Below are positions 117 through 7,085 of a stretch of 14,009 bases of DNA, one piece after another (the first letter of the stretch is position 1; the number at the start of each line of letters is the position of its first letter). The notes under the pieces are model-generated. The model did not search any database and was not told the DNA's origin. It saw only the letters and a list, made by a program, of their open reading frames with translations. Source of the stretch: a virus (Duplodnaviria > Heunggongvirae > Uroviricota > Caudoviricetes); the IMG/VR virus record IMGVR_UViG_2660237951_000011, positions 1 to 14,009 of that record. One strand, written 5' to 3'. The position numbers and the translations under genes are program-made.

Positions 117-2054
117 TCAGGCGGCTGCACCCGCCTTTTGATTTGCACATAATTCAGGAAGATTTGCTTCTACCAGCGCACGAGCGAACGGCGGCGGTAC
201 TGCGTTACCACAGCGCGCTACCTGCTTGTCTTTGGCGTAACGATTGCCGCGATAGTCCTGATCGATAACGTAGCCGTCAGGGAAGCCCTGCGCCTTATAA
301 AGCTCATGCGGTTGCAGCATGCGCATTCCGATATCGACGATCTGGTACTTAACCCCCTCGATCGTCACCAGCCATTCATCCTCGCTATCACCGCAGTAGG
401 TTTCGAGGAATGTCCGGACCTCGCCAACGTGCTGGCCACCAGCGGTAATCGTCGGCATAGGTGTATCCATGGTCTGACCGTCGCGGCAGGTTCCGCGCAG
501 CTTCACCAGGTGCGACGCAACTACCGCGTGGTGATCAACAGTAGTGACTGAGTGGGCAGGCTCATCCATACCAACACCCGGCCCCGTGTAATTCCCACCA
601 TAGTGCTTCGCCAGGAACGCGCTCACCGTTGCAAACTTATTACCACCAGCAGTGACCGTGCCGAGCGGGTTATTCAGTTGAAGAACACGCGGTTCTTGCC
701 CTGGGCGTTCGCCGTACCCCATCTGGATCAGTGTTGGAGTTACCAGCTGCGACTTACCGCCACCACCTGCAGTAATCGTCGCACTCGGTTCGTCAGCCCT
801 GTGCCCAACACTGGCTCCAAACTGGCGGGCGATGACCGGCGCAACCACGCACGCGCGGGACTGCTTGAGGATTGTATGAGCGGGTTTATCCAGCGGGCGC
901 GGCTTTGCCTGGTACTCACTGCCGCCATTGCCAGCCAGGAACGGTGTCAGGGCGGCCTCAACTACGCCAAGCGCATGCCCATTCCCGCCCGGGCGCGCCG
1001 ACGTACCAGCGGTGACAGTTGGTACCGGCTCGGTCACTGGCTGCCCGGTGGCCCCGGTGCGGAATTTAGTAAGATGCGGTACCGCCAGTGCGTAGCCATG
1101 CTTTTTAGTGATGGTCTGCAATGGCTCTAACAACGATTGCCCGCGGAAACAGTCATAACCTCCTTTCGTCGTGGTGTGGTTACACTTCACGATGAAAGGT
1201 GATGCGCTTTCGATAACAAAGCGCTGGATGCCGCGCGCGATACGTTTGAGCGTATTTTCCGCCAGCGGCTTTTTGCGGTCGAAGATGGACCGGGCCGGGA
1301 TATTCCAGTCAATGCACTCCGCCGCGGTACGCCATGGCGCCAGCTTGCCGCTTTGTACTTCCAGTGATTTTGGATCCCCATGAGTCGCTTCAGGCCAATG
1401 AATCTTGCGGCCGTCACAGCGCGTGACCATGAAGAAACGCTTTCTGATCGTCGGCGCGCCGTAGTCACATGCGCGCAGCTCCCGATAATCAACCTCATAA
1501 CCAAGCCCGGCGATCAGCTGTTGCGCCTGCTGGCCGTGCGGCTCAATGGCAAGGAATTCACAAACCTCAGCCAGCGCAGGGTGATTCGCCGCGATCCCCG
1601 TCGACAGCATGCCGACAAATGCCTCGAATGTTTCGCCAGCACGCTCAGGATCTGGGCGTAATTCTTCATCCAGCAGCGGGCCCCATGTCTTAAACTCTTC
1701 GACGTTCTCCAGCATCATGACGCGGGGACGTACTGCCAGCGCCCAGCGCAGGACAATCCACGCCAGCCCGCGAATCTCTTTCTTAACCGGCTTAGCGCCC
1801 TTCGCCTTGGAAAAGTGGCGGCAGTCAGGGCTAAACCAGGCCAGACCGACAGGTTTACCGCTGGTGGCTGCGCTTGGGTCAACGTCAAACACCGACTCGC
1901 AATAATGCAGCGTGTCAGGGTGATTCGTCTTATGCATCGCAATAGCGTTTTCGTCGTGGTTGATAGCGATATCCACGCTACGCCCGATCGCCAGTTCAAT
2001 GCCGGTACTCGCGCCGCCGCCACCAGCAAAGTTATCAACGATAATTTCACGCAT
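117..2054 (-). CDS. DNA (cytosine-5)-methyltransferase, 645 aa, with greatly expanded variable (target-recognition) region
   Basis: Start moved to internal ATG at 2054 (MREIIVDNF), which overlaps the upstream gene's stop. C5-MTase motifs read in order: I FAGGGGASTG; IV SPDCRHFSKAKG (P-C catalytic Cys); VI MMLENVEEF; VIII ACDYGAPTIRKRFFMV; IX MLQPHELYKAQGFPDGY; X GNAVPPPFARAL. About 370 aa lie between motifs VIII and IX. Confidence 0.85.
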   Translation of the reverse strand: MREIIVDNFAGGGGASTGIELAIGRSVDIAINHDENAIAMHKTNHPDTLHYCESVFDVDPSAATSGKPVGLAWFSPDCRHFSKAKGAKPVKKEIRGLAWIVLRWALAVRPRVMMLENVEEFKTWGPLLDEELRPDPERAGETFEAFVGMLSTGIAANHPALAEVCEFLAIEPHGQQAQQLIAGLGYEVDYRELRACDYGAPTIRKRFFMVTRCDGRKIHWPEATHGDPKSLEVQSGKLAPWRTAAECIDWNIPARSIFDRKKPLAENTLKRIARGIQRFVIESASPFIVKCNHTTTKGGYDCFRGQSLLEPLQTITKKHGYALAVPHLTKFRTGATGQPVTEPVPTVTAGTSARPGGNGHALGVVEAALTPFLAGNGGSEYQAKPRPLDKPAHTILKQSRACVVAPVIARQFGASVGHRADEPSATITAGGGGKSQLVTPTLIQMGYGERPGQEPRVLQLNNPLGTVTAGGNKFATVSAFLAKHYGGNYTGPGVGMDEPAHSVTTVDHHAVVASHLVKLRGTCRDGQTMDTPMPTITAGGQHVGEVRTFLETYCGDSEDEWLVTIEGVKYQIVDIGMRMLQPHELYKAQGFPDGYVIDQDYRGNRYAKDKQVARCGNAVPPPFARALVEANLPELCANQKAGAAA

Positions 2055-3381
2055 TGACGGCCCCCTGCATGCTGTTGAAGAGACCACCAGCGGTCGTGAT
2101 AATTTCACTCGTCGGCATACGTTCGAGCCACAGCTGGTTGATATTGGCTTTCAGCTTGTTCTGCTGCGAAACAGGTAGAGCGTCAGCCCCTTCAATCTGG
2201 TTAAACACCAGTCCAACCTCAAGAGGCCAAACGCGCGATTCGTTTAACGCCTTGTCCTTTGATTCCTGCGTCTCACGGACATGGGCGCGGATCCCCCGAA
2301 TATTTGACCATTTGGCTTTATCCAGGCTTTCCATGGTCGCGATGAATTCACTGTGGTTAATGCCGTATTCTTTCGCAGACTCAACGGCAACCGTGCGTAA
2401 CCGCTCTGACATGTCTTGTTTCACGTCATCGCTATCAAAGGGCAATGTTTCCAGCCATGCATTAACACCCACCAGGATGCTCTCGCTGATCAGCTTTTTC
2501 GCTCTGTCGATCGTCAGCGGTGAAACATTGGTAAATTCAGGGTTTTCCAGAGAGTCGGCAGCCCAGGTATGACCAAACTTTGACTCGCTGAAGGTGTACT
2601 CGTCTTTCTTGCCGAACGCCGCGACAACACAGGCCCAAGCCTCTACACCGCTGGTTTCCAGAATGGCTTTTTGGGTTAATGGCAGTTCTGCCTCTGATTT
2701 CTCCGGCACTACCTCAGCGTCCAGCTCCGGCGCCGCATCAGTTTGCGTTCTTCCCACGGCAAATTGGGCCAGCGACATCGCAGCACGGCCTTTGGCCTCC
2801 AGGTCGGTGCGGTTGATGTAACTGAAACGCTCACCCCGCCATGTTTTGTCGAAGACCACGATAGCGCCAGCAAAAAATGCGCTGGTGGGCTGCTGCTTTT
2901 CGTCTTTCGGCACGAACCATGTAGGAAGATCGAAACCAATTCGGCCACGGATGAATGTGACGTGATCTGCCTCTACCGGCCACCACGTTTCACTCGTCGC
3001 AGACTTAATGAGAAAAACGTACCGACCACCCTTTTCTCGCATGGCCATAGCGTGGTTAATGATGTGGGTCATTCCGGTAACGGCCTGCTTGTCGTGGTAC
3101 TGAGAGCGGCTGTAAGGCGGGTTGCCAAACCCGGCACCACCGAGTTCTGCCAGCCGCTCTGACCAATCCTGCATCAGGGCATTATCTTCAGCCGTGTACC
3201 ATGCTGGGCACTTCGCGTTGCTGTCGTCGGCAAAAAGGTCCAACACCAGAGGGCCGAACATCGCATTGATCCCCCAAAACAACAGATCCGGAGTGCGCCA
3301 TTGATCACCGACCTCTTTCAACTCGTGTGCTGGTTTTGAACGGAGTTCAGCTAGTGCACGGCAGTATTTATTTTCCATCAT
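2047..3381 (-). CDS. Phage Dam-family N6-adenine DNA methyltransferase with ~250-aa C-terminal extension of unknown function
   Basis: N-terminal region DQWRTPDLLFW...LDLFADDSNAKCPAWYT...GFGNPPYSRS carries the NPPY amino-methyltransferase motif in a phage-Dam-like context. Start ATG overlaps the upstream stop (ATGA at 3378-3381). Residues ~200-444 show no motif I recognise. Confidence 0.8.
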   Translation of the reverse strand: MMENKYCRALAELRSKPAHELKEVGDQWRTPDLLFWGINAMFGPLVLDLFADDSNAKCPAWYTAEDNALMQDWSERLAELGGAGFGNPPYSRSQYHDKQAVTGMTHIINHAMAMREKGGRYVFLIKSATSETWWPVEADHVTFIRGRIGFDLPTWFVPKDEKQQPTSAFFAGAIVVFDKTWRGERFSYINRTDLEAKGRAAMSLAQFAVGRTQTDAAPELDAEVVPEKSEAELPLTQKAILETSGVEAWACVVAAFGKKDEYTFSESKFGHTWAADSLENPEFTNVSPLTIDRAKKLISESILVGVNAWLETLPFDSDDVKQDMSERLRTVAVESAKEYGINHSEFIATMESLDKAKWSNIRGIRAHVRETQESKDKALNESRVWPLEVGLVFNQIEGADALPVSQQNKLKANINQLWLERMPTSEIITTAGGLFNSMQGAVNA

Positions 3382-4232
3382 CCTCTGAACCCCTCTGGAA
3401 TCTTGCTATCAACCGGACCGAACTTCATCGGGTCATGTTTCTTTTCACCCCAGCTGTCACGCGGTGGCCGCCCCTTCTTGTCCCAGCGGATCCCGCTTTG
3501 CAGATAACCTTCAAATTTTTTCGGACCGAAGAGCGTTTCAGGACGCATGTACTGGTACTGCACGTCATTGCCGTTCCAGTGCTCATGCTTAAGGTCGATC
3601 ACCAGCTGTAAGTCGCTAACGGTGTAACCTTCACGCAGACGAGCACGGATGTTTTCCAGAGAAGTTTTTGATTTTTGGTATCGTGAGCCACTAACCAGGT
3701 TCAGATGATTCAGAACCAGGATGGCGTTATCGGTGATCATCACTTCAGGGTCTGGTTGCGGCGCAACCGGACAAGAAGGTTTTTTAACTGATGGATCAGT
3801 AGTTGTATTTACTGACGGATCCCCCCCAGATTCTGACGGGTGAAAACCGCCTTTTTCATCGTTTTTTGATGCCTCAGATTTTGACGCGTCGGTTTTTGAG
3901 GCATCAGATTTTGATGCGTCAGAATCTGACAGGTGAGAAAAGGCAGCAGCCTGCAATTTAGCAACATTGAGCTGGTAAACGTTCGATGCATTTCGGTTGC
4001 CTTTACGGCGCTGCTGGCGGGTTAACCAACCATCTTTTTCCAGCTGAGATATGGCTGTACGAACCGTGCTCTCACCAGCACCAATCTGGCGCGCGATGGT
4101 AGCGATGGAAGGCCAGCTAACCCCTTCATCACTGCTGAAGTCTGCCAGACGCGCCATGATGGCAACGCTGGATAGCTTCATGCCAGAAGCGGCACAAGCA
4201 TCCCAAACGTAACCCGTTAATTTAGTGCTCAT
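3378..4232 (-). CDS. Phage replication initiator (lambda O-like): N-terminal winged-HTH, low-complexity SDASK-repeat linker, conserved phage replication C-terminal domain
   Basis: 284-aa ORF with RBS AAGGA 5 nt upstream of the ATG at 4232. N-terminus (SVAIMARLADFSSDEGVSWPSIATIARQIGAGESTVRTAISQLEKDGWL) is HTH-like. Central linker DSDASKSDASKTDASKSEASKND is encoded by tandem 15-bp DNA repeats. C-terminal region resembles phage replication-protein C-terminal domains. The family assignment is from memory, not a search. Confidence 0.65.
   Translation of the reverse strand: MSTKLTGYVWDACAASGMKLSSVAIMARLADFSSDEGVSWPSIATIARQIGAGESTVRTAISQLEKDGWLTRQQRRKGNRNASNVYQLNVAKLQAAAFSHLSDSDASKSDASKTDASKSEASKNDEKGGFHPSESGGDPSVNTTTDPSVKKPSCPVAPQPDPEVMITDNAILVLNHLNLVSGSRYQKSKTSLENIRARLREGYTVSDLQLVIDLKHEHWNGNDVQYQYMRPETLFGPKKFEGYLQSGIRWDKKGRPPRDSWGEKKHDPMKFGPVDSKIPEGFRG
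3864..3938. repeat. Four to five tandem 15-bp repeats (consensus TTTTGAnGCnTCAGA) inside the O-like gene; candidate origin iterons
   Basis: Direct reading gives ttttgatgcctcaga / ttttgacgcgtcggt / ttttgaggcatcaga / ttttgatgcgtcaga / atctgacaggtgaga. Each has a near-palindromic 10-bp core TGAnGCnTCA. Position mirrors lambda ori, which sits in the O linker. Confidence 0.5.
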
Positions 4233-4401
4233 GGTCGTCCTTTAACTCTGTAAACTTGCGCTTGAATTGTTCGAGCGGGCTGAAACATTCGTGGTCATAT
4301 CCATCCCGCAGGTAGATAACTCGTTGAGTCTCTGGCTCCCACCTGATAACCCGAACGGGGATCCCTCTGTGGTCTTTGAACCTTCGGTTAACTTCGCGCA
4401 T
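4222..4401 (-). CDS. Hypothetical small protein (59 aa), below the ORF-track length cutoff
   Basis: Minus-strand ATG at 4401 with AGGAAGG about 10 nt upstream; stop overlaps the O-like start by 11 nt. Translation MREVNRRFKDHRGIPVRVIRWEPETQRVIYLRDGYDHECFSPLEQFKRKFTELKDDHEH is protein-like in composition. Several rare Arg codons and competition with an overlapping 126-aa frame lower confidence. Confidence 0.3.
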   Translation of the reverse strand: MREVNRRFKDHRGIPVRVIRWEPETQRVIYLRDGYDHECFSPLEQFKRKFTELKDDHEH

Positions 4402-4573
4402 AAGCGTTTCGCCTTCCTGTAGTAAACCCCCACAATTGCGACCGCCCGACTGTGGTTACATGGCACCCAGCGGTTTGCTATTCTGCGTTCATACCGAAAC
4501 AACGGAGCGCCCGGTACCGGGATCATCCTGAGTTGCGGCAAACGGTTAAAAGCCGTTAAACTGGTCATGCGGA

Positions 4574-5122
4574 TTACTTCTCCATACAAGATTTGTCTGC
4601 CACGACGCCCGGAGCTGCACACTCGCGGGCGTCACCTTTTTCCGGCGCACAAAACACACGGAAAAGCAGCGTCAAATGTTCCTGCCACTTAGCCATCACC
4701 TGATAGCTGTTCTCTTCAATCTGGGCGCGTTCCTGAGCATCAATAACGCCGTCAGCGGTAGCTTTGCGAACGTATTGCGAATGCCTGCCGATCCACTCCA
4801 CTGACTCCATAAGACGCTGGTTGATGTCACCGTTCTCTATTTCTTCAACGTCAGCCAATGGCACGAAAACACCGTTCGAGTGACGTGCAATAGCGTTCGC
4901 TATGTGGTTTGAACCACCAGCACGTTGAAGCACCATCGCCCAACCGAGCGGGAAGATCTGATCGCCATCGGTACGCAGCCGGTTAAACAGCGCGTTCTCG
5001 GTCACACCCAACCACTCAGCAGCTTCTGAATATCCGCCAGGCAGCTCGGTGATCGTTTTTTTGATTGCGGCCACCAGCCAGGCTGGCTGCTTATCTACTT
5101 TCCATTCAGGTTCTATACCCAC
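4574..5122 (-). CDS. Putative CII-like early regulatory protein, 182 aa, GTG start
   Basis: ORF-track start (GTG at 5206) would overlap cro by 62 nt. An in-frame GTG at 5122 sits 8 nt after a strong AAGGGAGG placed right after the cro stop, so I take 5122 as the start. Sits at the cII position (after cro, before replication genes). Contains an HTH-like stretch (GGYSEAAEWLGVTENALFNRL). Family call is tentative. Confidence 0.5.
   Translation of the reverse strand: MGIEPEWKVDKQPAWLVAAIKKTITELPGGYSEAAEWLGVTENALFNRLRTDGDQIFPLGWAMVLQRAGGSNHIANAIARHSNGVFVPLADVEEIENGDINQRLMESVEWIGRHSQYVRKATADGVIDAQERAQIEENSYQVMAKWQEHLTLLFRVFCAPEKGDARECAAPGVVADKSCMEK
4604..4641 (+). terminator. Intrinsic terminator on + strand, antisense to the 3' end of the CII-like gene (OOP-like arrangement)
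   Basis: 8-bp stem 4604-4611 / 4626-4633 with 7 G:C pairs, 14-nt loop, then ACC and TTTTT (4637-4641). Confidence 0.5.
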
Positions 5123-5144
5123 GGCTAGGTCCTCCCTTCTGTGG

Positions 5145-5360
5145 TTATTTCTGATCGCTTGGCGATGTATTCTTGCCATAACGTTCTGGGTTAAATTCCA
5201 GTTCACCAGCAGTTCGATACGCAGCTTCAGCAGCTCGTCCTTTTGGGATTAAGCGTCCGGGGCGGTTACGCCACTGGTAAACGGCCTCACTGGTGATGCC
5301 AAAAAATTCGGCAACTTTTTCAGTGCTGCCGAAATGTTGTTCAATCTCGTCGGTTGTCAT
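5145..5360 (-). CDS. cro: Cro-like HTH repressor (71 aa)
   Basis: Small basic HTH protein (FGSTEKVAEFFGITSEAVYQWRN) transcribed divergently from the CI repressor gene. AGGAGG lies 4 nt upstream of the ATG. A sigma70-like promoter TTGACC-17-TAATAT is on the minus strand at 5416..5388. Confidence 0.7.
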   Translation of the reverse strand: MTTDEIEQHFGSTEKVAEFFGITSEAVYQWRNRPGRLIPKGRAAEAAYRTAGELEFNPERYGKNTSPSDQK

Positions 5361-5373
5361 GAAGCCTCCTTAG

Positions 5374-5437
5374 CTAAGTTTGGTTAGATATTAATAACCA
5401 ATCTAACTTTGGTCAATAAAAACTAAGATTACTTAGT
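5374..5437. promoter_or_regulatory. OR-like operator/promoter region between cro and cI
   Basis: Three related boxes: CTAAGTTTGGTTAG (5374-5387), CTAACTTTGGTCAA (5403-5416) and perfect palindrome ACTAAGATTACTTAGT (5422-5437). The first two overlap the start site and -35 of the cro promoter. Confidence 0.6.
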
Positions 5438-5459
5438 CTTTTTTAAACTTGGTGCTTTC

Positions 5460-6086
5460 ATGGAAACGGTTGGTCAGCGCATTAAAGCCCTACGTAGGGT
5501 TACAAGAACCTCTCAAAAAGAACTGGGTAAGTTCTGCGGGGTTAGTGACGTAGCGGTGGGTTATTGGGAAAAGGATGTGAATATCCCAAACGGTGAATCG
5601 CTGGTTAAGCTGGCGAAATTCTTTAACACATCAATAGATTACATTCTTTACGGCACTGAATTTGAAGGCACCCTCATAACTAAAATGAGGCGTGTCCCGG
5701 TGATTTCATGGGTTCAAGCTGGGCAGTTCACGGAATGTAAAGCCGCTGATTTGTTCAGTGATGTCGATAAATGGGTTGAAACATCACTTCGCATTGGGGA
5801 TAACTCGTTCGCTTTAGAGGTCAAAGGGGATTCAATGACCAATCCAAATGGCCTCCCAACAATCCCTGAAGGGGCAACCGTTATTGTTGATCCAGATGCC
5901 GAACCCCTTCATGGCAAGATTGTGGTTGCGCGTCTTGATGGCACTAATGAAGCGACTGTTAAAAAACTTGTCATTGATGGCCCACAAAAATTTTTAGTGC
6001 CACTAAATCCTCGCTACCCCAACATCCCGATCAATGGTAACTGCCTCATTATTGGCGTTGTTAAAGGCGTTCAGTACGAACTCTAA
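5460..6086 (+). CDS. cI: CI-type prophage repressor, N-terminal HTH plus C-terminal S24 (LexA-like) autocleaving peptidase domain
   Basis: N-terminal HTH (TSQKELGKFCGVSDVAVGYWE). Ala-Gly cleavage site in VQAGQF. Ser nucleophile in GDSM and the Lys of the dyad in ATVKKL. Divergent from cro across an operator region. Confidence 0.9.
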   Translation: METVGQRIKALRRVTRTSQKELGKFCGVSDVAVGYWEKDVNIPNGESLVKLAKFFNTSIDYILYGTEFEGTLITKMRRVPVISWVQAGQFTECKAADLFSDVDKWVETSLRIGDNSFALEVKGDSMTNPNGLPTIPEGATVIVDPDAEPLHGKIVVARLDGTNEATVKKLVIDGPQKFLVPLNPRYPNIPINGNCLIIGVVKGVQYEL

Positions 6087-6528: not shown

Positions 6529-6557
6529 TGCCCATCACATCGGTGGGCACCTTTTTT
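6529..6557 (+). terminator. Intrinsic terminator-like hairpin inside the leader upstream of the first accessory gene
   Basis: 8-bp stem TGCCCATC / GGTGGGCA (one G:U pair), 5-nt loop, then CC and TTTTTT (6552-6557). Confidence 0.45.
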
Positions 6558-6713: not shown

Positions 6714-7085
6714 ATGAGTAATGACCGCATGACCGTAGTGCCCGACTTTTTGGGCGAGCTGGATGCCGGTGTGTTCATGAACAAAATCGCGGCAGCACTT
6801 AACACCACCGCGCTTGGCGTTCTGAACAACGGCAACAAAGGCAAAGTAGTCCTCACCTTTGATTTTGAGCGTATGGGTAATTCCGTTGAAGAGAAGCGCG
6901 TCAAGATCAAGCACAAGCTGAACTACAGCACCCCAACTCCGCGCGGTAAAGCCTCCGAAGAGGACACAACCGAAACCCCTATGTGGGTTAACAAAGGCGG
7001 GAAGCTAACCATCCTCCAGGAGGATCAGGGGCAACTGTTCGGGATCACCGGCGCGGTGGACGGAAAGCTTAAAGCGGCTCAGTGA
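6714..7085 (+). CDS. Hypothetical protein (123 aa), first gene of the accessory operon; YfdP-like by position
   Basis: ATG at 6714 with GAGGG 7 nt upstream. The ORF-track start at 6627 has no RBS. Typical codon usage. YfdP assignment is by gene order only, not sequence recall. Confidence 0.6.
   Translation: MSNDRMTVVPDFLGELDAGVFMNKIAAALNTTALGVLNNGNKGKVVLTFDFERMGNSVEEKRVKIKHKLNYSTPTPRGKASEEDTTETPMWVNKGGKLTILQEDQGQLFGITGAVDGKLKAAQ

Follow-up and report, generated by a model that had tools for sequence, protein, structure and literature searches.

A predicted ECS003-like antisense RNA at the ymfL–ymfM junction of a lambdoid phage early operon

Does this lambdoid phage's CII-like gene overlap, at its 3' end, a short antisense RNA gene, and is such an RNA a relative of the OOP RNA of lambda? 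The original prediction placed on the + strand a sigma70-like promoter and, within the CII-like gene's 3' end, an 8-bp GC-rich hairpin followed by ACC and TTTTT. A transcript of ~70–75 nt was expected, and the antisense control known from lambda was supposed to be conserved here. We examined the element in the window (the whole analysed stretch of DNA, 14,009 nucleotides) and in its relatives.

Genes and element at the ymfL–ymfM junction

The window comes from a lambdoid temperate phage and covers its immunity and early region; positions 4200–5460 are 98% identical to Escherichia phage LLS in a BLAST search against phage genomes. All genes between 117 and 5360 lie on the − strand. The genes around the junction and the parts of the element are as follows.

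5460–6086, + strand: cI-like repressor gene of the LexA family
5360–5145, − strand: P22-Cro-like gene
4574–5122, − strand: YmfL-family (186 CII/CP76-type) regulator gene; Pfam PF06892 'phage regulatory protein CII (CP76)', E = 1.8e-9; NCBIfam NF041471, E = 6e-56
4242–4568, − strand: YmfM-like ORF; 40% identity to YmfM of e14, E = 4e-15
4222–4401, − strand: DUF4222 gene; Pfam PF13973, E = 2.7e-18; overlaps the 3' half of the YmfM-like ORF in a different frame
4232–3378, − strand: replication-initiator-like gene
4533–4538, + strand: −35 hexamer TTGCGG (TTGCGA in many relatives)
4557–4562, + strand: −10 hexamer TAAACT after an 18-nt spacer; TAAA(C/T)T in all relatives
4566–4641, + strand: predicted cis-antisense sRNA of ~72–77 nt; 5' end at 4566–4569, 3' end at ~4640–4642
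4578–4583, + strand: anti-Shine-Dalgarno segment UUCUCC within the RNA's 5' part, the complement of the GGAGAA that precedes the downstream ORF; TTCTCC or TCTCC in nearly all copies
4604–4633, + strand: putative terminator hairpin; outer stem 4604–4611/4626–4633, inner stem 4612–4614/4622–4624, bulged G4625
4615–4621, + strand: loop CTGCACA, with the CTGCA core invariant in all but one copy
4637–4641, + strand: T run (U tract) TTTTT, 3 nt after the stem

The hairpin and the T run lie where they had been predicted, 30–67 nt inside the 3' end of the YmfL-family CDS, whose stop codon occupies 4574–4576 on the − strand. In the outer stem, GACGCCCG (4604–4611) pairs with CGGGCGTC (4626–4633), and ACC and TTTTT follow. 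The stem is longer than the 8 bp originally noticed, since GAG (4612–4614) also pairs with CTC (4622–4624); it comprises 11 bp in total, and the hairpin alone folds at about −20 kcal/mol. The NF041471 model stops at residue 157 of the 182 residues of the protein, and the codons spanning the hairpin belong to the C-terminal tail outside the family model.

The promoter was correctly located but needs a small adjustment. Both TTGCGG and the TTAAAC first taken as the −10 hexamer are present, and the hexamers are conserved. Some relatives, however, carry TAAATT, and one has GTAAAT, which keeps TAAATT but breaks TTAAAT. The −10 hexamer is therefore better read as TAAAYT at 4557–4562 (TAAACT in the window), one base to the right and with an 18-nt spacer. 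The predicted length of 72–77 nt follows from a 5' end at 4566–4569 and termination 7–9 nt past the stem. Such an RNA would match the operon mRNA by full complementarity along the final 67 nt of ymfL and over the Shine-Dalgarno sequence and AUG of the YmfM-like ORF. The start codon of this ORF (4568–4566) and its Shine-Dalgarno sequence GGAGAA (4583–4578), which are separated by 9–11 nt on the − strand, both lie under the 5' end of the RNA, and codons 2–12 of the ORF carry the sRNA promoter. The 5' GCGN may form a weak 4-bp helix with the bases that immediately precede the terminator; it shows slight covariation, and we regard it as tentative.

The window alone gives weak evidence. Its fold is modest (z = −2.9 for 86 nt, with 2 of 200 shuffles equally good), and a consensus scan of the window listed neither the promoter, which matches the consensus at 7 of 12 positions, nor the terminator, which has a 14-nt loop without the inner stem. 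Terminator-like sites were not enriched in the window (24 found versus 16.4 ± 4.1 expected), and the window ORF list contains no + strand gene upstream that the terminator could serve. The U tract, five U after a 3-nt spacer, is short and the site is absent from the simple scan list; the stem is strong and covarying. No match was found in Rfam 15 at the gathering threshold, and a permissive search of 4380–4760 returned chance-level hits only (E > 5). No LexA box was recognizable by eye at the promoter (CTGG-N8-ATTA). It is the comparative data that indicate an element far beyond chance.

Some other features of the region were noted. Two tandem DNA methyltransferase genes occupy 117–3381 (−) of the early operon, with ORFs overlapping at 2047–2108; one encodes a protein of 444 aa that has a Dam domain at its N-terminus followed by a long C-terminal stretch not assigned to any family, and the other a C-5 cytosine methylase of 663 aa. 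Downstream of the cI-like gene region are two strong terminator-like sites, one at 6529–6549 (+), consisting of TGCCCATCACATCGGTGGGCA followed by CCTTTTTT, and the other at 6812–6788 (−), with an 11-bp stem.

Kinship with ECS003 and comparison with OOP and sar

ECS003 is a cis-antisense sRNA of the cryptic prophage e14 of E. coli K-12, antisense to ymfL and ymfM (Shinhara et al. 2011, BMC Genomics 12:428, PMC3175480). Deep sequencing revealed a 116-nt read region with a 78-nt main block, and Northern analysis gave a ~70-nt band together with a faint ~120-nt band (PMC3175480). Its read count was the highest among the nine cis-antisense candidates with predicted sigma-70 promoters (Table 2 of PMC3175480), its level was unchanged in every tested condition, hfq knockout included, and the authors proposed that it masks the ribosome-binding site (PMC3175480). 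In addition, genomic SELEX in vitro located a constitutive binding site of the RpoD holoenzyme between ymfL and ymfM of e14 (Shimada et al. 2014, PMC3946193). No RNA is annotated at the ECS003 locus in the K-12 RefSeq record, ECS003 has no Rfam family, and it is not mentioned in a 2025 review of phage sRNAs.

The published ECS003 sequence starts with CAUGCGUUAGUUUCUCC and contains GACGCCCGGAGCUGCACACUCGCGGGCGUC (supplement of PMC3175480). When it is aligned to the window, its start (CAUGCG) falls on C4566 and the hairpin is identical at 30 of 30 positions; the main block of 78 nt extends 7 nt beyond the stem. A covariance model constructed from 15 family members of other subtypes, from which the subtype of the window was left out, hit 4566–4645 (+) of the window over the full model length (66.9 bits, E = 5e-13). 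The two elements agree in position (antisense to the 3' end of ymfL and to the ribosome-binding site and start of the next ORF), in promoter hexamers and their spacing, and in length class, whereas the 5' body and the tail differ and the overall identity is ~74%. These similarities indicate that the window element is a homologue of ECS003 and a member of its family. The RNA is thus of a known kind, ECS003 having been detected previously in e14, and the window adds a member.

Since ECS003 is made from the corresponding e14 sequence, there is almost certainly a short + strand RNA whose size and position are those predicted. The ~70–75 nt originally expected agree with the main block and the Northern band of the e14 homologue, which has the identical hairpin. 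The two promoters differ in that the window has TTGCGG in place of TTGCGA and is devoid of the TG extension of e14. Since only 7 of 12 consensus positions are matched and the TG extension is missing, the expression may be lower than in e14. The T run of the window (TTTTT) is, in contrast, better than that of e14 (TTACTTTCT), and the weaker e14 tail still yields the 78-nt main species.

Two other candidate products of the locus were rejected. A longer RNA of ~150 nt starting from GTTACA-18-TGcTATTCT (4455–4484) had been suggested by a block at 4450–4640 common with Stx phages; the 5' end of ECS003 maps to 4566, and the block, which shows no drop in diversity (pi ~0.25), is accounted for by an N-terminal domain conserved in the ORF downstream. 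A small protein of 41 aa on the + strand (ORF 4567–4692) was discarded as well: the ORF crosses the terminator, and e14-type copies read ATG CGT TAG, so that no + strand ORF is conserved.

Lambda OOP is an RNA of ~77 nt made independently of the early operon, and it lowers cII expression via RNase III, a control shown for OOP only. In lambda, the start codon of O and the −10 hexamer of pO overlap, OOP extends from 38675 to ~38599, and tO lies 55 nt inside cII. The window has the same geometry: the promoter lies in the first codons of the next gene, the terminator lies inside the cII-type gene's 3' end, and transcription is directed towards cro and cI. The overlap with the cII-type gene is 55 nt for OOP and 67 nt for the window RNA. 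The 5' end of OOP stops just short of the Shine-Dalgarno sequence of O, whereas the window RNA extends over both start signals of the next ORF, its Shine-Dalgarno sequence and its AUG.

The likeness does not extend to the sequences. Local alignment with OOP gave a score of 17, compared to a mean of 15 and a maximum of 22 for shuffles, and the covariance model found no match in lambda 37900–39000 (the cro–cII–O region). The designation CII-like is valid in the sense of PF06892 and the NCBIfam YmfL family but not in the sense of lambda CII, against which BLASTP gave E = 14; the target gene belongs to the 186-CII/CP76/YmfL family (PF06892/NF041471) in the window and to the lambda CII family in the case of OOP. 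Because the RNAs lack sequence similarity and the CII proteins are unrelated, we consider, on the basis of these comparisons, that the window RNA is a positional analogue of OOP and not a homologue or a member of the OOP family. The proposal that one and the same antisense control has been conserved from lambda must accordingly be dropped.

A second phage antisense RNA offers another parallel. P22 sar, 68–69 nt in length, pairs with a downstream regulatory gene at its ribosome-binding region, and many relatives of the present element (in Stx2a_1447, SfV, and mEp460) similarly cover the start of an Ash/Rha antirepressor ORF. On the other hand, sar resides in the immI locus rather than at the cII/replication junction, there is no homology, and the ORF covered in the window is YmfM-like and not an antirepressor. 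In Stx2a_1447 (L001, 468–1619), SfV, and mEp460 (L001, L006, and L007), the same first ~13 codons (MNSLTANNRLSQQ) head the antirepressor ORF of ~380 aa, which has Ash and Rha domains. Judging from these sequences, the leader that bears the promoter seems to move together with the RNA module from one downstream gene to another.

Conservation of the hairpin and promoter

A BLAST search against phage genomes showed that a block from ~4555 to 4634–4654 is common to phages in which the sequence beside it is different on one side or on both, among them SfII, SfIV, SfV, mEp460, cdtI, Stx2a and Stx2c phages, ST64B, phiNP, and phages of Klebsiella and Pantoea. STnc1310 of ST64B, named in one paper without coordinates, is a possible Salmonella homologue. 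Three sets of relatives were gathered: 80 loci found via the YmfL protein (set 1), 119 stretches of viral contigs found via the promoter pattern (set 2), and 68 matches to the promoter pattern from one genome per species (set 3).

All 61 distinct hairpin segments from sets 1 and 2 fold, with 11–12 bp and −17.7 to −24.6 kcal/mol. Covarying stem positions in related prophages had been named in advance as a check on the hairpin, and they were found: among 22 distinct hairpins, 97.9% of the stem cells are paired, and compensatory changes on both sides occur in 7 of the 11 pairs. The few cells scored as unpaired come from the placement by MAFFT of the L177 and L200 hairpins one column off register; both fold perfectly on their own. 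The covariation score was 0.545 versus 0.23 in shuffles and was reached by none of 500 shuffles, and control structures slid by 1–3 columns were paired at only 39–49%. As for wobble pairs, 21 G·U pairs occur on the + strand and no A·C. Variant hairpins reach stabilities as weak as −12.8 kcal/mol when read on the − strand, whereas all stay at or below −17.7 kcal/mol on the + strand. The strand specificity of the wobble pairs and the stability of the variants lead us to conclude that the selected structure is the + strand RNA and not an mRNA or a DNA cruciform.

Coding constraint offers no substitute explanation. A 1-nt indel in the loop (CTGCACA versus CTGCAA) shifts the reading frame of the YmfL tail and leaves the hairpin in place. 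Since this indel shifts the frame and the NF041471 model ends before the hairpin codons, the YmfL protein does not explain the conservation of the hairpin. Among 95 unique full-length homologues (67–99% identical), the third-codon diversity is 0.002 within 4604–4633 versus 0.477 in the rest of ymfL.

The promoter is conserved as well. In 73 homologues collected without the promoter pattern, GTTGCG, TTAAA, TG, and TCATGCG show little or no variation; the spacer is 18 nt long in every case, whatever its sequence, and TTGCG-19 nt-TAAAYT is invariant in the homologues not chosen by the pattern. Part of this conservation could come from the conserved N-terminal peptide of the downstream ORF (M-x-S-L-T ... 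P-Q-L-R); in this ORF, more than 100 loci share conserved residues over the N-terminal ~55 positions. In set 3, the hairpin ends 63–74 nt after the CATGCG start in all 59 copies with enough sequence, while the hairpin is missing from five matches in other phyla that are evidently due to chance. Most of the 59 copies are from Enterobacterales, namely Escherichia, Shigella, Citrobacter, Klebsiella, Enterobacter, Kosakonia, Kluyvera, Buttiauxella, Rahnella, Serratia, Ewingella, Pantoea, Erwinia, Mixta, and others. The T-run region of the relatives reads TCTTTTCT, TTACTTTCT, or TTCTTTTT, and over its 5' two thirds the RNA is freely variable, both in length and in sequence. These comparisons establish selection on the + strand hairpin and promoter, in addition to the anatomy of the element and its homology to a detected RNA.

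The loop deserves separate mention. Of ~120 distinct copies, all but one (L167, with TTGCA) have the same CTGCA core even though 7 of the 11 stem pairs covary, an invariance that is not accounted for by termination, cis-antisense pairing, or a coding sequence whose frame shifts.

Four relatives from Kluyvera and Pseudocitrobacter (L221, L268, L270, and L274) keep the promoter and an identical hairpin followed by ACCTTCCCCAAA or AACTTCCCCAAA, which contain no T run. As these relatives have the hairpin without the T run, termination may not be its sole role.

The complete enterobacterial element was also encountered in assemblies labelled Chryseobacterium, Nocardia, Geobacteraceae MAG, and Vagococcus (L230, L247, L253, and L262). 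One such contig is 415 bp long with 0.86x coverage, and the element in these four assemblies is probably assembly contamination.

Proposed role and alternative explanations

We propose, with a probability of roughly 0.65, that 4533–4641 (+) is a self-contained sRNA gene homologous to ECS003 and acts as an antisense on the early operon. By analogy with e14 and OOP, we infer both its expression in this phage and its regulatory effect. A sigma-70 promoter (TTGCGG, 18 nt, TAAACT) buried in codons 2–12 of the YmfM-like ORF would initiate transcription at ~4566–4569, opposing the early rightward (pR-type, − strand) operon. Transcription would stop ~72–76 nt further on, at the putative intrinsic terminator in the C-terminal tail of the CII-like gene (the 11-bp hairpin at 4604–4633 and the U tract to 4641). 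If e14 is a guide, the RNA is probably made constitutively, lysogens included. By pairing with the stop codon of ymfL and with the Shine-Dalgarno sequence and AUG of the downstream ORF, the RNA would block translation initiation of that ORF, and the ~70-bp duplex would be open to RNase III, so that the CII-like message might be destabilized as lambda cII is by OOP. The terminator would, in addition, confine this constitutive transcription, which could otherwise traverse the cII-like and cro genes in antisense orientation and enter cI.

A more far-reaching version of this proposal is that the element is a portable lysis–lysogeny cassette, independent of lambda OOP in origin and overprinted on two genes. 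The cassette would dictate both the C-terminal tail of a YmfL-type CII and the first 12 codons of the following gene, whether this is YmfM-like, a stand-alone 59-aa protein, or an Ash/Rha antirepressor. It might then combine the job of OOP, RNase III-mediated decay of a cII-type message, with that of sar, a translation block of a downstream antirepressor or division inhibitor, and the invariant CUGCA loop could be a recognition element for a protein or a kissing partner. We put this forward tentatively, as an idea more likely wrong than right.

Among the explanations that compete with the antisense proposal, the likeliest one holds that the promoter and the terminator matter while the RNA product does not. 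Transcription from the promoter might interfere with the pR-type operon; alternatively, the hairpin might be an insulator that stops an unavoidable constitutive promoter, embedded in a conserved CDS, from sending antisense transcription through the cII-like and cro genes and into cI. The geometry suits this explanation, being convergent with the early operon, such that read-through would enter cro in the antisense and cI in the sense direction; a faint ~120-nt read-through species is seen in e14 (PMC3175480), and the free variation of the 5' two thirds of the RNA is also in keeping with it. However, a dispensable product fits less well with the top read count of the e14 RNA among the nine tabulated candidates (PMC3175480), with the four copies that have the hairpin but no T run, and with the invariant loop and the conserved anti-Shine-Dalgarno segment, which suggest constraint on the RNA itself. 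We judge this explanation unlikely.

Somewhat less probable still is an RNA that acts mainly in trans on mRNAs of the host or of other phages, in the manner of DicF or the anti-sRNAs of EHEC, with a seed in the UUUCUCCA segment (a conserved single-stranded segment of the RNA) or in the CUGCA loop. A trans role could account for the constitutive abundance of the RNA in the uninduced, defective e14 prophage, where the cis target is repressed, and for a loop that does not vary while the stem covaries. Against it, the RNA level is independent of Hfq, the variable 5' body argues against a fixed seed, and the position of the RNA at the junction between ymfL and the downstream gene is strictly conserved across the mosaic phages.

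The idea that the + strand has no function, the conserved stretch being an element of the − strand mRNA, a C-terminal motif of YmfL, or a recombination 'linker' of mosaic phages, agrees with 4555–4634 being the sole similarity to some phages, as is expected of a mosaic junction, and with a consensus hairpin slightly more stable on the − strand (−22.6 versus −20.0 kcal/mol), but it is largely refuted by compensatory changes and G·U pairs on the + strand only, by variant hairpins that fall to −12.8 kcal/mol on the − strand while remaining at or below −17.7 on the + strand, by a loop indel that alters the peptide by frameshift with the hairpin intact, by the lack of a T run after the hairpin on the − strand, and by the direct detection of the + strand RNA in e14 (PMC3175480).

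The analysis ties an orphan sRNA of E. coli K-12, detected in 2011, to a large family under strong structural constraint, which is found in temperate phages of at least two dozen Enterobacterales genera and holds the position of OOP beside a non-lambda CII. The family has neither an Rfam model nor a genome annotation, and the present covariation data would support an Rfam model. If the antisense function is true, antisense control at the cII/replication junction would have evolved at least twice, and the lysogeny decisions of e14, SfV, ST64B, and Stx phages would share an unannotated RNA regulator.

The family also bears on ymfM of e14, which is an SOS-inducible cell-division inhibitor gene, as its translation start lies under an RNA of the ECS003 family. 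In K-12 e14 (L013), ymfM spans 4823–5161, and a DUF4222 ORF with a TTG start (5002–5181) lies unannotated inside it. A comparison of the window with e14 gives 80% identity (E = 2e-36) for the DUF4222 frame but only 40% for the YmfM frame; the conserved part of 'YmfM' is confined to the N-terminal ~55 residues, which in some genomes form a stand-alone ORF of 59–65 aa. Since the DUF4222 frame is better conserved and YmfM is conserved only at its N-terminus, the 3' half of the annotated cell-division inhibitor gene may be an out-of-frame read of the DUF4222 gene.
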